DNA of 64,000 nt from assembly GCF_937129605.1 (NCBI RefSeq), contig NZ_CAKZNN010000007.1. One strand, given 5' to 3'. The position numbers and the translations under genes were made by a program. The stretch comes from an uncultured Maritimibacter sp. (GTDB lineage Bacteria > Pseudomonadota > Alphaproteobacteria > Rhodobacterales > Rhodobacteraceae). This document shows, piece after piece, positions 21,358 through 48,759 of this stretch (positions are counted from its first letter, which is position 1; every line of letters begins with the position of its first letter). Under the pieces are notes generated by a model. It was not told the origin of the DNA. It searched no databases and saw only the letters and a list, made by a program, of their open reading frames with translations.

Positions 21358-21636
21358 CTTTACTCTGCCCCATGCCCACAAGGCAGAGGCGGTGTCAGAC
21401 GGGCCGTGCCCGTTGTCTTTTCTGATATCCGCTCGTTGGCCCCACGCTTTTGCCGCGCTTCGGTGGCCGACCCCTGCCTCGGGATTTGTTAATGATTGGA
21501 CAATGACCCCGAAGGGTCGATTTGTTAACGAACTTGTTCACCTCTCCACTGAATGGAGGAAATCTGTCGCAGGGCTGCAACATTTGCGCCCGAAGCGCCG
21601 GGGATGTATCTGTCTGACAGGCAAGGAGAATACCCC

Positions 21637-22776
21637 ATGATCGAAGAAAACGCGGTCGAGATCACGCGCAGGTTGATCGAATGCCCCTCCGTCACCCCCG
21701 AGGAAGGCGGTGCTCTGGTCTATCTCGCGGATCTGCTGGCCGGCGCCGGGTTCGACTGCACCCGCGTAGACCGGGGGGAAACCGCGAACCTCTTTGCCCG
21801 CAAGGGACCCAAGGGGGCTGCGCGCACCTTGGGCTTCAATGGCCATACCGACGTGGTGCCGGTGGGGGATACCGGAGCCTGGACGGTGCAACCCTTTGGC
21901 GCGGAGATCCGCAACGGGATGCTCTGGGGCCGGGGCGCGACCGACATGAAATCGGGGGTCGCCGCCTGGGTCGCCGCAGCAATGGCAGCGGAGGTTCCCG
22001 AAGACGGCGCGTTGATCCTCGCCATTACCGGCGATGAAGAGGGCGACGCGACCGACGGCACCGTCGCGCTGCTCGACTGGATGGCCGCCAATGGCGAGGC
22101 GATGAGCGCCTGTGTCGTCGGCGAACCCACCTGCCCCGATGTCATGGGCGAGATGATGAAGATCGGGCGTCGCGGTTCGATGACCGCGTTCTTCACCGCG
22201 CGCGGCGTGCAGGGGCACGCGGCCTATCCGCATCGGGCGAAGAACCCCGTGCCCGCGCTGGCGAGACTGGTCGCCGCGCTCGACGCACATGTGCTGGACG
22301 AGGGCACGGATCATTTCGACGCCTCGACGCTCGCCGTCACAACGATTGACGTGGGCAACCCGGCCACCAACGTGATTCCGGCCGAGGCACGGGCGACCGT
22401 GAACATCCGCTTCAACGATGCGCATAGTTCGCAGGCGCTGACCCGCTGGCTCGAAGAGATGGCGGATCAGGCGGCGGCGGACACCGGCATCGGGATTTCC
22501 ATGACGGTCAAGGTCTCGGGCGAGAGCTTCGTGACACCGCCCGGGCCGCTCTCCGCCCTTGTCGCGACGGCAGTCGAGGCGGAAACGGGGCTGCGACCCG
22601 TGATGTCGACGAGCGGCGGCACTTCGGACGCGCGCTTCGTCAAGGATCACTGCCCGGTGGTCGAGTTCGGGCTGGTCGGCAAGACCATGCACCAGGTCGA
22701 CGAACGGGTCGAGATCGTCCAGATCGAACAGCTTGCGCGGATCTACGGGCGGATCATCGGCTACTATTTTGCGTGA
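21637..22776 (+). CDS. dapE: Succinyl-diaminopimelate desuccinylase
   Basis: [53 protein letters not shown]. Confidence 0.96.
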
Positions 22777-22867
22777 CGCTTTTGGACGCCGGGACCACGC
22801 GCGTTAACCCGTGACGATGTTCAAAGATGTGCAAGCCTTTGTGATTAATTATTATTTTTGAAATCAT

Positions 22868-22928
22868 GATTCTAGTTTTCTAGAATCCTGGAATTCCGGG
22901 ATGCCAGAATCCCGGACTCGCCGGAATG
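22868..22928. repeat. Palindromic core plus tandem octamer array (consensus CYRGAATC)
   Basis: GATTCTAG-TTTT-CTAGAATC followed in phase by CTGGAATT, CCGGGATG, CCAGAATC, CCGGACTC, then G and CCGGAATG. Confidence 0.75.
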
Positions 22929-22975
22929 ACCTCCGGTGCGCCCGAAGGCCATCACTACCGCGAAAATCGCAGGGG

Positions 22976-23569
22976 TCAGACGAGCGCCACGCCCGCCGCC
23001 CGCATCTCGGCCAAGGCCCGCTCCAGTGACCCGTCCAGATCAATCGCCCGGCAGGCAGACATCTTGACCGTCACATCAAAACCCAGCCGCGCGGCATCGA
23101 GCGCCGACCACGCGACGCAATAATCCGTGGCGAGCCCGACAAAGGTCAGCCGCGTCGCGCCCCGCGAGCGCAGGTAACCCTCGAGTCCGGTGGGTGTTTC
23201 ATGGTCATTTTCGAAGAACGCAGAATAGCTGTCCACGTCCGACCGAAAGCCCTTGCGCAGGATCATGTCCGCCGGCGCCACCTCGAGGTCCTCGTGGAAA
23301 GCGGCACCATCAGAGCCTTGCAGGCAGTGATCTGGCCAGAGCACTTGCGGACCATAATCCATCTCGACCAGGTCGAAGGGCACGCAGGCGGGATGCGACG
23401 AGGCGAAAGAGGAATGCCCTGCCGGATGCCAGTCCTGCGTGAACACCCGGATCGGAAAGGCCGCGAGCATCCGGTTGATCTCGGGCACGACCTCGTCCCC
23501 GCCCGCCACCGCCAAGGCTCCGCCGGGACAGAAATCGTTCTGAACGTCGACGACGATCAAGGCGTCCAT
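22976..23569 (-). CDS. pncA: Nicotinamidase/pyrazinamidase
   Basis: VDVQNDFCPGGALAV, QDWHP..H, WPDHC, YSAF, GLATDYCV. Confidence 0.95.
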   Translation of the reverse strand: MDALIVVDVQNDFCPGGALAVAGGDEVVPEINRMLAAFPIRVFTQDWHPAGHSSFASSHPACVPFDLVEMDYGPQVLWPDHCLQGSDGAAFHEDLEVAPADMILRKGFRSDVDSYSAFFENDHETPTGLEGYLRSRGATRLTFVGLATDYCVAWSALDAARLGFDVTVKMSACRAIDLDGSLERALAEMRAAGVALV

Positions 23570-23573
23570 CTCG

Positions 23574-24965
23574 TCACCCATTGAACCGCGCCGTCACCTG
23601 CCGGTTGCCGCGCATATAGTCCACGCGCCACCAGCCGGACTGGCCGGTGACGACCTGTTCCAGTTCTTCGGGCGTCGTGACTGCCACCCGGTTCACGGTC
23701 AGAATCACGTCGCCGCGCAGGAACCCCGTGCGCGCCGCGCGGCCCTCGACCCCGACGACGACGAGTCCACCAGTGACATAGGGGTTGCCCATTGACCGAG
23801 CCATGTCCGCGGTCATCGGCGTCACCGTCAGTCCCTGAAACGGACCCGCCGCCGCAATGGTGACAAGCGACGCTTCGGCCCGTTCCGGCGCCGGGACCAG
23901 AGCCACCTCAGCCCCCTGCCAGGACCCGCCCGAGATATAGCGCACCGCCACGGTGTCACCGAGCGGATGGGTGGCGAGCCGGAAATCGAGTTCGGCCGCA
24001 GCGTTCACCGGCTGATCCTCGATCGCGACGATCACATCGCCCGGCGCCAGCCCGGCTTGGGCAAAGGGACTGTCCTCGGCCATGCGCCGCAGGATCACGC
24101 CCATCGGCCGGTCGAGCCCCAGCGCCTCGGCCATGCCGGCATCGACCACCTGCACCTCGACCCCGGCATAGGGCCGCTCGAACCGGTCCTTGCCCGCCGC
24201 GGCCTGGTCCACGACCTGTTTCACGAGCGCCGCGGGGATGGCGAAGCCGATCCCGTTCGATCCGCCCGAACGTGTCACGATCTGCGTGTTGATGCCGACA
24301 AGGTCGCCGTTCATGTCGACAAGCGCCCCGCCGGAGTTGCCGGGATTGATCGGCGCGTCGGTCTGGATGAAATAGCGCCCGCCCTGCATCATGCCGCCGC
24401 CGCCCTGCCCGGTGCGCGCAAGGCCCGAGATGATGCCCGATGACACGGTCTGGCCGACGCCAAAGGGGTTGCCGATGGCGAGCACCAGATCACCCACTTT
24501 CAGACCGTCGGAATCCGCGTAATCGAGGGCCGGAAGCTCTGGCGCATCCGCGAGCCGGATCACCGCGAGGTCGGCGAATTCATCGGCCAATACCATGGTG
24601 CCCGCGTATTCGCGACGGTCAGCCAGCACGACACGGATGTCGTCGGCATTGCCCACCACATGGTAATTCGTCACGACCAGCCCGTCGCCAAGGATCACGC
24701 CGGACCCGAGCGAGTTCTGCTCCCGTGGACCCAAGACGAAGTCTTTGAAGAACTGCGAGAAAAACGGGTCATCCTGAAACGGCGTGCGCTGTTCGAGGGT
24801 GCGCGAGGCATAGATGTTCACGACCGCGGGCGCCGTCGCCTCGACCACCGGGGCAAAGGACAGTTGCACCTCGGCCTGACTGCCCGGCACACGCTCCTGC
24901 GCGGCGAGCGGCAAGGCCTGCAACGACGTCGCGAGAATTGCAATCAAGATCAGCTTTCGAAACAT
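23574..24965 (-). CDS. DegP/DegQ-type periplasmic serine protease with two PDZ domains
   Basis: Signal peptide, TNYHVV (His), DLAVI (Asp), INPGNSGG (Ser); true start MFRKLIL at 24965. Confidence 0.93.
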   Translation of the reverse strand: MFRKLILIAILATSLQALPLAAQERVPGSQAEVQLSFAPVVEATAPAVVNIYASRTLEQRTPFQDDPFFSQFFKDFVLGPREQNSLGSGVILGDGLVVTNYHVVGNADDIRVVLADRREYAGTMVLADEFADLAVIRLADAPELPALDYADSDGLKVGDLVLAIGNPFGVGQTVSSGIISGLARTGQGGGGMMQGGRYFIQTDAPINPGNSGGALVDMNGDLVGINTQIVTRSGGSNGIGFAIPAALVKQVVDQAAAGKDRFERPYAGVEVQVVDAGMAEALGLDRPMGVILRRMAEDSPFAQAGLAPGDVIVAIEDQPVNAAAELDFRLATHPLGDTVAVRYISGGSWQGAEVALVPAPERAEASLVTIAAAGPFQGLTVTPMTADMARSMGNPYVTGGLVVVGVEGRAARTGFLRGDVILTVNRVAVTTPEELEQVVTGQSGWWRVDYMRGNRQVTARFNG

Positions 24966-48655: not shown

Positions 48656-48691
48656 GATTCCGGGATTCTAGAATTCTAGAATCCCGGAATC
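48656..48691. repeat. Perfect 36-bp palindrome built from four octamers
   Basis: GATTCCGG GATTCTAG AATT CTAGAATC CCGGAATC is its own reverse complement. Confidence 0.85.
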
Positions 48692-48759
48692 AAAAAGCTT
48701 CAACAAAAGCGCTGCCTTCGAAACGAAATTCTGAGGGATACCTTAACAGGCAGCCGCAC

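Follow-up and report, generated by a model that had tools for sequence, protein, structure and literature searches.

Introduction

Several described systems pair a small DNA-binding protein with short or dispersed repeats. The omega repressor of pSM19035 binds cooperatively at several promoters, placing one small dimer on each 7-bp unit of direct or inverted repeats that vary in number; the ParR-parC and ParG systems can be grouped with it. The tubC repeats, 12 bp long, are found next to tubZ on plasmid or phage replicons. On chromosomes, MatP-matS, ParB-parS, Noc-NBS and SlmA-SBS each combine one dedicated protein with some tens of dispersed sites. Repetitive extragenic palindromes (REP), bacterial interspersed mosaic elements (BIME) and REPIN are dispersed palindromic repeats which favor gene 3′ ends, are restricted to particular lineages and turn over between species, and some of them carry a site for integration host factor (IHF), as do the RIB/RIP elements of E. 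coli. TubR, finally, coats a tandem-repeat array cooperatively to give a nucleoprotein filament (PMC9178275). Here we describe an array of 8-bp units at positions 22868-22928 of a 64,000-nt stretch of DNA (the window; G000:C7:386905-450904) from an uncultured Maritimibacter sp., whose 4.54-Mb draft assembly of 29 contigs is referred to as G000. From sequence comparisons we favor, with moderate confidence, the reading that this is a chromosomal binding array for a partner protein of the ArsR/SmtB winged-helix fold.

Comparison with these systems reveals likenesses to each and identity with none. As in TubR-tubC, the gene of a small winged-helix protein is preceded by short tandem repeats, but here the units are 8 bp long, the gene stands alone on the chromosome, about 28 arrays are dispersed, and the closest structures are ArsR/SmtB rather than TubR. 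Omega is a plasmid-borne ribbon-helix-helix protein with few promoter sites, whereas the present candidate is a chromosomal winged-helix protein and the arrays lie mostly at gene 3′ ends. With the REP class the element shares extragenic palindromes located at gene 3′ ends and, in some spacers, an IHF-like motif; it differs in that the REP-associated tyrosine transposase (RAYT) is missing from two of the three carrier genomes tested, in lacking a conserved GTAG head, in its phased 8-bp units of varying number and in a protein gene that varies along with them. The chromosome organizers use single palindromes of 13 to 16 bp that are widely conserved and regionally clustered, whereas here each site is a multi-unit array accompanied at fixed distance by a second motif, and specificity changes within one genus. 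ArsR/SmtB autorepressors have the same fold, and a dyad-like TTAA-N8-TTAA box occupies the operator position here; yet the partner falls below every curated family threshold and has no metal-ligand set, and the ArsR/SmtB operator is of the 12-2-12 form. To our knowledge, a tandem octamer array combined with genome-wide dispersal has no counterpart among characterized ArsR/SmtB members. Nothing relevant came up in literature searches on the repeat sequences, on repeats in Maritimibacter or on ArsR proteins with tandem 8-bp arrays.

Results

A phased octamer array is dispersed over the chromosome

The array at 22868-22928 is 61 bp long, has six in-phase CYRG units and is among the longest in its genome. 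Read as a 4-nt spacer followed by CYRG, it runs GATT-CTAG, TTTT-CTAG, AATC-CTGG, AATT-CCGG, GATG-CCAG, AATC-CCGG, ACTC-(G)CCGG, AATG. In the window, its core half GATTCTAG occurs four times against 0.66 expected, a count reached by 0 of 100 shuffles, and all four copies fall either in this array or in a sibling array at 48656-48691. Single units such as CCGGAATC, with one mismatch allowed, showed no enrichment (86 found, 101 expected); the signal therefore resides in the phased run. Much of what a sequence-only reading of the locus had pointed out holds at this level. The AT-rich run, the dyad, the 8-bp phasing, the 1-bp slip and the GANTC sites (starting at 22868, 22883, 22907 and 22915, that is, four in 52 bp) are all present where that reading placed them, the sibling carries the same core and belongs to the same repeat family, and both open reading frame (ORF) calls and Pfam matches agree with the proposed convergence of dapE and pncA around 22840-22928.

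Scanning G000 for the core and for runs of four in-phase units, we find about 28 arrays (27 to 29) of the 8-bp-phased repeat, CYRG plus a 4-nt spacer. A typical array is GGATTCCGGGATTCTAGAATTCTAGAATCCCGGAATCC; the unit number is 2-6 or higher, with an expansion here and there, for example (GGAATCTT)x4, and units of the G000 type consist of GATTC/GAATC in opposed orientation. The degenerate probe CYRGDWWHCYRGDWWHCYRG gives 28 matches per strand in G000 and its reversed-pattern control none. The arrays are confined to eight contigs of 64-65% G+C, with zero on contigs of lower G+C. Similarity between copies is limited to about 36-66 bp, and their orientation relative to flanking genes is random. 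According to a crude gene caller based on third-codon-position G+C (GC3), on which our context statistics rest, 8 arrays lie between convergent genes, 16 between tandem and 2 between divergent ones, and 1 is apparently genic. Set against a background of 351 convergent, 1129 tandem and 455 divergent spacers, this amounts to a shift toward gene 3′ ends, but it also means that the convergent context, earlier taken to characterize the element, does not define it.

Our genus comparison comprised ten genomes including G000 (G000 to G009); a wider set held 40 relatives, and a family-wide sample held one genome per genus from 120 other genera. Among the 40 relatives, the 20-nt core is found only in G000 (14), G004 (11) and G007 (16). 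Among 185,579 species genomes, just two have it in multiple copies, Maritimibacter dapengensis (17 loci) and an unclassified metagenome-assembled genome (MAG; 4 loci). The degenerate probe has 0-2 matches in 118 of the 120 other genera, a level like that of its reversed-pattern control. In G006, whose arrays use another octamer, these are distributed along the 4-Mb chromosome without obvious clustering.

A small winged-helix gene has its start toward an array

To find a partner, we clustered the genes adjoining arrays in G000, G007, G004 and the MAG. One family of small winged-helix genes stood out, its members having their start toward an array in G000, in the unrelated MAG and, as two paralogues, in G007. 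The G000 member (G000:C7:13696-14013, minus strand, 106 aa) stands alone on a chromosomal contig of 485 kb, at a distance of 373 kb from the window, and the order there is array (about 135 nt before the ATG), TTAA-N8-TTAA box, gene. Beyond the array an aldolase gene (DeoC/LacD) diverges, and polA converges on the 3′ end of the partner gene. No ParA, ParM, TubZ or Rep gene lies beside the partner gene or the arrays, and in other lineages the gene has different neighbors, likewise without a partition NTPase. The segment GCAATATTTTCCGTTTGGTCAAATTT, strongly conserved upstream of the aldolase gene across the genus (L127-L131, L169), is probably that gene's own promoter or operator.

Orthologues of the partner gene are present in 7 of the 10 genus genomes and were not found in G001, G009 or G008, the last of which is 81% complete in 310 contigs (the assembly G115, from another genus, is likewise incomplete). 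The family as a whole is small: a search of 5.8 billion proteins yields 17 clusters at E ≤ 1e-5, and most of these derive from Rhodobacteraceae MAGs or from metagenomes of marine or saline origin. Some family members appear below under P numbers. Upstream DNA could be read for 22 members, drawn from the genus, two other genera and metagenomes, and in 18 of them an array is clear, 125-190 nt ahead of the ATG. The other four are G005 and G074, each with array remnants only, G059, with an insertion sequence (IS) element, and P0013, which has no array within the mere 70 bp of upstream DNA at hand.

By sequence the partner escapes the curated families: it scores 15.8 bits against a threshold of 27 for Pfam HTH_20, does not reach HTH_5, and has 41.1 against 55 for NCBIfam HTH_metalloreg. 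It was absent from our lists of ArsR paralogues because its Pfam score is too low. Its AlphaFold2 model (predicted local distance difference test, 88.3) has helices at residues 3-15, 17-28, 36-43, 47-59 and 78-97 and strands at 63-68 and 71-76, and the best matches of the model in the PDB are ArsR, SmtB, CadC and CzrA (template modeling score, 0.6-0.73, with the top ones at 0.70-0.73). As modeled, the protein is an ArsR/SmtB winged-helix fold, alpha1 to alpha5 plus a beta hairpin. An alignment of 17 sequences shows neither the alpha-3 CXC motif nor a conserved set of alpha-5 His/Asp/Glu metal ligands; its invariant residues are HPRR, HH and ME..GL. The canonical ArsR paralogues were also considered (70 loci in nine genomes, with eight G000 paralogues profiled) and discarded, as none is specific to array carriers; the best of them, C10:551520, is matched by 70% homologues in G002 and G006 too. 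Next to a permease gene in G007 (L038; G007:C4, about 154050-154420, minus strand) there is a second gene of ArsR-like type, more distant and with a Cys-rich tail, which has an array 75 bp upstream along with its own perfect palindrome, CTATAAAACTAGTTTTATAG.

Octamers and recognition helix vary together

The octamer upstream of the partner gene differs from lineage to lineage. It is CTAGAATC in G000, G004 and G007 and CTAGTATC in G002 and G006; G003 has two paralogues (the L133/L162 set), A with (AATCCTAG)x5 and B with (TTTTCCGG)x11 or more. Outside these genomes we find CCGGTATT for P0014 and P0016, CCGGTTTT for P0012, P0010 and P0015, CTAGGAAA / CCGGTTTC for P0017, CCGGATAT for P0008, the GATTC/GAATC type for P0003 and P0004, and (TCCCCTAG)x10 in G115. 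Sorted by protein clade, the spacer types are AATC, TATC, TTTT, TATT, GAAA and ATAT. Dispersed arrays reuse the home octamer of their genome: G002 and G006 each have 21-22 arrays of the TATC type, of which the remaining eight genus genomes have 0-2; the pattern CYGGTTTT has 78-82 matches in G003 and 21-46 in G008, two genomes with many long arrays of this type, and zero elsewhere; and arrays of the AATC type are limited to G000, G004 and G007.

The start of the recognition helix, residues 46-49 of the G000 protein, tracks the octamer spacer. CDAS goes with AATC (5/5), SNAA/V with TATC (2/2), AAS(A/S) with TATT (2/2), RKTP with GAAA and RYSS with ATAT, and RPSS goes with TTTT in 4 of 4 cases although the proteins are merely 45-72% identical. 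Both the remainder of this helix, L(I/V)HH(L/V)R.ME, and the CYRG core hardly vary. Before inspecting the upstream DNA of P0010 and P0015, we forecast from their RPSS that they would have CCGGTTTT arrays, and both forecasts were confirmed. These predictions, together with the dispersed copies that are not linked to the gene, are the stronger part of the co-variation argument.

Gene and arrays also occur together beyond the genus. Among the 120 other genera only G115 (27 matches, CTAGGGGA) and G059 (62 matches, CCGGTTTT) are rich in arrays, and only G059, G074 and G115 have true homologues of the partner; a match in G084 was rejected as an ArsR-ArsC fusion without the HPRR signature. By our own estimate, the chance that both array-rich genomes would fall among three homologue carriers is ~4e-4. 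The G115 homologue lies about 165 nt from the longest array of that genome. This gene (L138, C6:8571-11744) contains an in-frame TAA and is either a pseudogene or the product of an assembly error. In G059 (L137, C19:15365-18628), the place of the upstream array is taken by a transposase gene of undefined type, although long CCGGTTTT arrays are still present in that genome.

The array is one end of a polar composite

TTAAC/GTTAA occurs within 110 bp of 23 of 29 G000 arrays, compared with 6.1% of 5000 control intergenic positions, never on both sides and in nearly all cases 50-66 bp off the array edge. In G006, with its different octamer, TTAAC lies beside 17 of 20 arrays, mostly at 48-70 bp. 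Positions 22803-22928 are one copy of this polar composite of about 125 bp, made up of TTAAC, a spacer of about 60 bp and the octamer array. Since the octamers change and TTAAC does not, the latter is probably recognized by a second, conserved factor.

A fuller box, TTAA-N8-TTAA (GTTAACGAAGnnnTTAAC), is found six times in G000, with four of the six adjoining arrays (Table 1). In most lineages such a box stands about 45-60 bp from the array and 60-90 nt before the winged-helix ATG, while the dispersed copies retain a single TTAAC half-site and have no -10 element. A CtrA box was considered and rejected, as the TTAA repeats are N8 apart, one base more than the canonical N7. The composite is not a general promoter either: its TTAAC end faces a gene 3′ end in 15 of 22 cases, the -10 is not kept and the orientation is random.

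The spacers themselves are poorly conserved apart from a frequent GAATATGA beside the array and CTGA/ATCAG motifs that resemble the IHF core. Of 28 spacers, 3 match the strict IHF consensus (controls, 0.8%) and 12 contain ATCAG (controls, 24%), a signal that is suggestive only. The IHF-like motif WATCARNNNNTTR, or the ATCAG core, lies in either orientation between array and TTAAC, for example at C6:444243, C7:382826 and C9:880187 of G000 and at L008, L011 and L036 of G007. Its position beside the arrays recalls the RIB/RIP BIMEs that contain IHF sites, and P1 parS.

Positions are conserved between relatives while arrays turn over

Within the genus, G004 alone shares the dapE-pncA synteny, and it has an array at the same place. 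Aligning the two spacers, we find only GTTAACC and the first four units conserved, with the core appearing as GATTCTAGAATTCCGGAATC; neither the AT tract nor the units past 22895 have a counterpart. The suggestion that the AT-rich tract is a working part, for melting or bending, thus finds no support in the comparison. Different 8-bp arrays follow dapE in G008, (TTTTCTGG)x8, and in G003, AAAACCGG/TTTTCCGG, and these were the first hint of several octamer types in the genus.

All 12 arrays of G004 (one of them degenerate) are at positions orthologous to G000 arrays, and about 7 of the 16 arrays of G007 are at positions shared with G000. Between G000 and G004 the arrays are 74% identical and the 110-bp flanks 52%, figures that are indicative only since repeats align easily. 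For G007 against G000, the spacers at empty sites have diverged too far to be aligned for insertion boundaries.

Two further observations concern the instability of the arrays. The flanks of one G004 array (L157; G004:C2:190997-194016) map to C7:200176 and C9:880210 of G000, on different contigs; both sites carry arrays, which points to a rearrangement through arrays. Unit number also varies between near-identical contigs that encode an identical protein (2 versus 7 in L148 and L149, 9 versus 12 in L165 and L166). The arrays behave as slippage-prone simple repeats.

The locus in the window

The features of the locus are collected in Table 1. The dapE-like gene, which has orthologues in 10 of 10 genus genomes, forms the left boundary and is outside the element. 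A promoter-like match on the plus strand at 22858-22886 (TTGAAA-17-TAGAAT, 10/12) is taken as chance. Its -10 hexamer belongs to CTAGAATC, so every such unit carries a near-consensus -10.

Table 1. Features of the array locus and its sibling, and four of the six full TTAA boxes of G000. Plain numbers are window positions; those with a contig prefix are G000 contig positions.
Feature	Position	Strand	Description
M20 peptidase gene, dapE-like	21553..22776	+	ORF; Pfam Peptidase_M20 1.3e-35, M20_dimer 1.1e-23; stop TGA 22774-22776
GTTAAC, TTAAC end of the polar composite	22803..22808		27 nt past the dapE stop, 59 nt left of the array
Spacer from TTAAC to array	22809..22867		Contains AT-rich tract GATTAATTATTATTTTTGAAAT, 22843-22864
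Dyad core GATTCTAG-TTTT-CTAGAATC	22868..22887		First three octamers; inverted repeat 91% complementary
Core part GATTCTAG	22868..22875		
Core part TTTT	22876..22879		
Core part CTAGAATC	22880..22887		
Five further octamers in 8-bp phase	22888..22928		Second, imperfect dyad centered on GGAATTCC
Octamer CTGGAATT	22888..22895		
Octamer CCGGGATG	22896..22903		
Octamer CCAGAATC	22904..22911		
Octamer CCGGACTC	22912..22919		
Extra G	22920		
Octamer CCGGAATG	22921..22928		Follows the extra G
Isochorismatase-family gene, pncA-like	22976..23581	-	ORF; Pfam Isochorismatase 2e-26; right boundary, converges on dapE
Sibling array	48656..48691		Perfect 36-bp palindrome, same family
TTAAC end of the sibling composite	48743..48747		51 bp right of the sibling array
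TTAA-N8-TTAA box	C7:14086-14101		
TTAA-N8-TTAA box	C7:382764		
TTAA-N8-TTAA box	C10:125774		
TTAA-N8-TTAA box	C9:451776		

Discussion

The sequence makes it very probable that the array is a multi-unit site for a protein, as had been proposed when only the DNA of the window was read, although the iteron or centromere character assigned to it at the time is not supported. Our candidate for the bound protein rests on the linkage of gene and array, their co-occurrence and co-variation, the polarity of the composite and its conservation in position. We envisage the array as a cooperative site for the small stand-alone winged-helix protein, several copies of which would coat the 61 bp. The protein would contact the octamers with one protein unit on each, by likeness to omega on its heptads and TubR on tubC. 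The home array would be the one about 135 bp upstream of the partner gene, and the other 27 or so arrays, 22868-22928 included, would be secondary docking sites, mostly at gene 3′ ends. As to what the array does between dapE and pncA, our preferred guess is that it acts as a roadblock or insulator between their converging transcripts, or else that arrays bridge DNA to one another.

Several observations weigh against this reading. Because home array and gene are physically linked, clade-specific octamers there could reflect co-inheritance rather than co-evolution, and the residues that track the octamers sit in a generally variable part of the protein. The tracking has exceptions: the MAG (J06555) has RSST with AATC arrays, and the G059 protein has ADSS with CCGGTTTT arrays. 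G008 has arrays in an assembly (81% complete, 310 contigs) where the gene was not found, and G005 and G074 have the gene with array remnants only. The TTAA-N8-TTAA box, constant across clades and at the classical position of an ArsR operator, could be the real site. The distribution of contexts (31% convergent, 8% divergent) and the random orientation look like tolerated insertions more than a regulon. Finally, a spacing of 8 bp is tight for dimers of the ArsR type.

The point about the box leads to the main alternative, which we regard as rather unlikely, namely that the partner is an autorepressor which binds only TTAA-N8-TTAA at its own promoter, the arrays being bound by some other factor or acting through slipped strands or cruciforms. 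Arrays would then travel with the box because the dispersed copies duplicate the upstream region of the gene. The box does lie 60-90 nt before the ATG in nearly all members and overlaps a plausible -35/17-nt/-10 arrangement (TTAAGA-17-GTAATT in G000); it is still there in G005 and G074, whose arrays have decayed, TTAAC is unchanged while octamers differ by lineage, and the adjoining of arrays by 4 of the 6 full boxes of G000 fits as well. However, this explanation requires a second factor whose specificity shifts in step with the partner clades, and it leaves the tracking of octamers by the recognition helix and the two confirmed predictions unexplained. The dispersed copies hold a single TTAAC half-site with no -10, and arrays made of direct repeats, (CCGGTTTT)n for example, are unable to fold into cruciforms.

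We also consider it unlikely that the composite is a selfish intergenic repeat of the REP type, or a miniature inverted-repeat transposable element (MITE), which has no dedicated protein and whose copy at the regulator gene is simply the oldest or the master. Such a repeat would be intergenic, biased to gene 3′ ends, palindromic and randomly oriented, as these arrays are, and it would account for the patchy occurrence in the genus, the turnover between G000 and G007, the polymorphism in unit number and the rearrangement joint at an array. Yet RAYT/Y1 transposases (PF01797) are absent from G004 and G007, with their 11 and 16 arrays, and the sole Y1 enzyme of G000, of the IS200/IS605 type (C22:4865-5221), lies on a plasmid-like contig of 59.7% G+C and is unrelated to the arrays. 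G000 has no full-length element with these ends, and no target-site duplication is visible. Measured as a MITE, the composite has ends that differ (array at one, TTAAC at the other), no end duplication was seen and no longer element bears the core, in spacers too diverged for empty-site alignment. Nor does selfish spread explain why, across lineages and octamers, an array stands upstream of one protein family, or why arrays are better conserved than their flanks.

An element acting at the RNA level is a very unlikely explanation. Here the array would supply 3′ untranslated region hairpins by which the transcripts of dapE and pncA are stabilized or terminated, or it would encode a small RNA. 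Its position directly after the stop codons would suit this, as would the promoter-like match at 22858-22886, and the spacer does fold better than shuffled sequences on both strands (z of -3.5 and -3.7), forming three short hairpins across the array. Against it, neither strand of 22600-23150 has a terminator-like site or a U tract, and Rfam 15 gives no match at gathering score in the window, with chance-level matches only (E 3-6) in 22650-23100. The arrays of sister lineages are direct repeats, which cannot form long hairpins, and orientation is random with respect to the flanking genes. In two copies, moreover, the terminator of the neighboring gene follows TTAAC by 15-25 nt, which leaves no room for a transcript.

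Two further proposals are highly improbable. Short tandem repeats by an AT-rich tract do resemble plasmid origins and parC/tubC, and the partner has a winged-helix fold as TubR does, but an iteron or centromere for replication or partition, with the AT tract melting or bending, is hard to reconcile with about 28 copies that are all on chromosome-like contigs, with the lack of Rep, ParA, ParM and TubZ neighbors, with opposed 8-bp units in place of iterons of 17-22 bp, and with an AT tract that is not conserved in G004. Likewise, the four GANTC in 52 bp, and the GATTC or GAATC held by nearly every unit of the G000 type, could suggest a CcrM methylation or GcrA-type cell-cycle mark, but the homologous CCGGTTTT, CCGGTATT, CTAGGGGA and CCGGATAT arrays lack GANTC while keeping the architecture and the gene linkage, so GANTC is a by-product of the octamer of the G000 lineage.

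Returning to the proposed binding array, a broader picture can be offered tentatively. Gene and arrays may form a self-contained protein-plus-satellite system of fast-changing specificity, in which the array has, in some lineages, seeded tens of chromosomal sites, each coupled at about 60 bp to a TTAAC site for a second, conserved factor. By coating the arrays and possibly bridging them, the protein might insulate adjoining transcription units or organize the chromosome, and the arrays would also serve as recombination joints through which the genome is reshaped.

For annotation, the array family explains a class of repeats at which assemblies break and which mark the joints of rearrangements. 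If the pairing of protein and octamer is true, it would provide a natural set of at least six octamers paired with short changes where one recognition helix begins, of direct use for studying how winged-helix specificity evolves and as a source of orthogonal DNA tags. It would further mean that in marine Rhodobacteraceae intergenic "junk" repeats can serve as sites addressed by a protein, and it would suggest a candidate mechanism by which converging genes are insulated from one another in genomes poor in intrinsic terminators.

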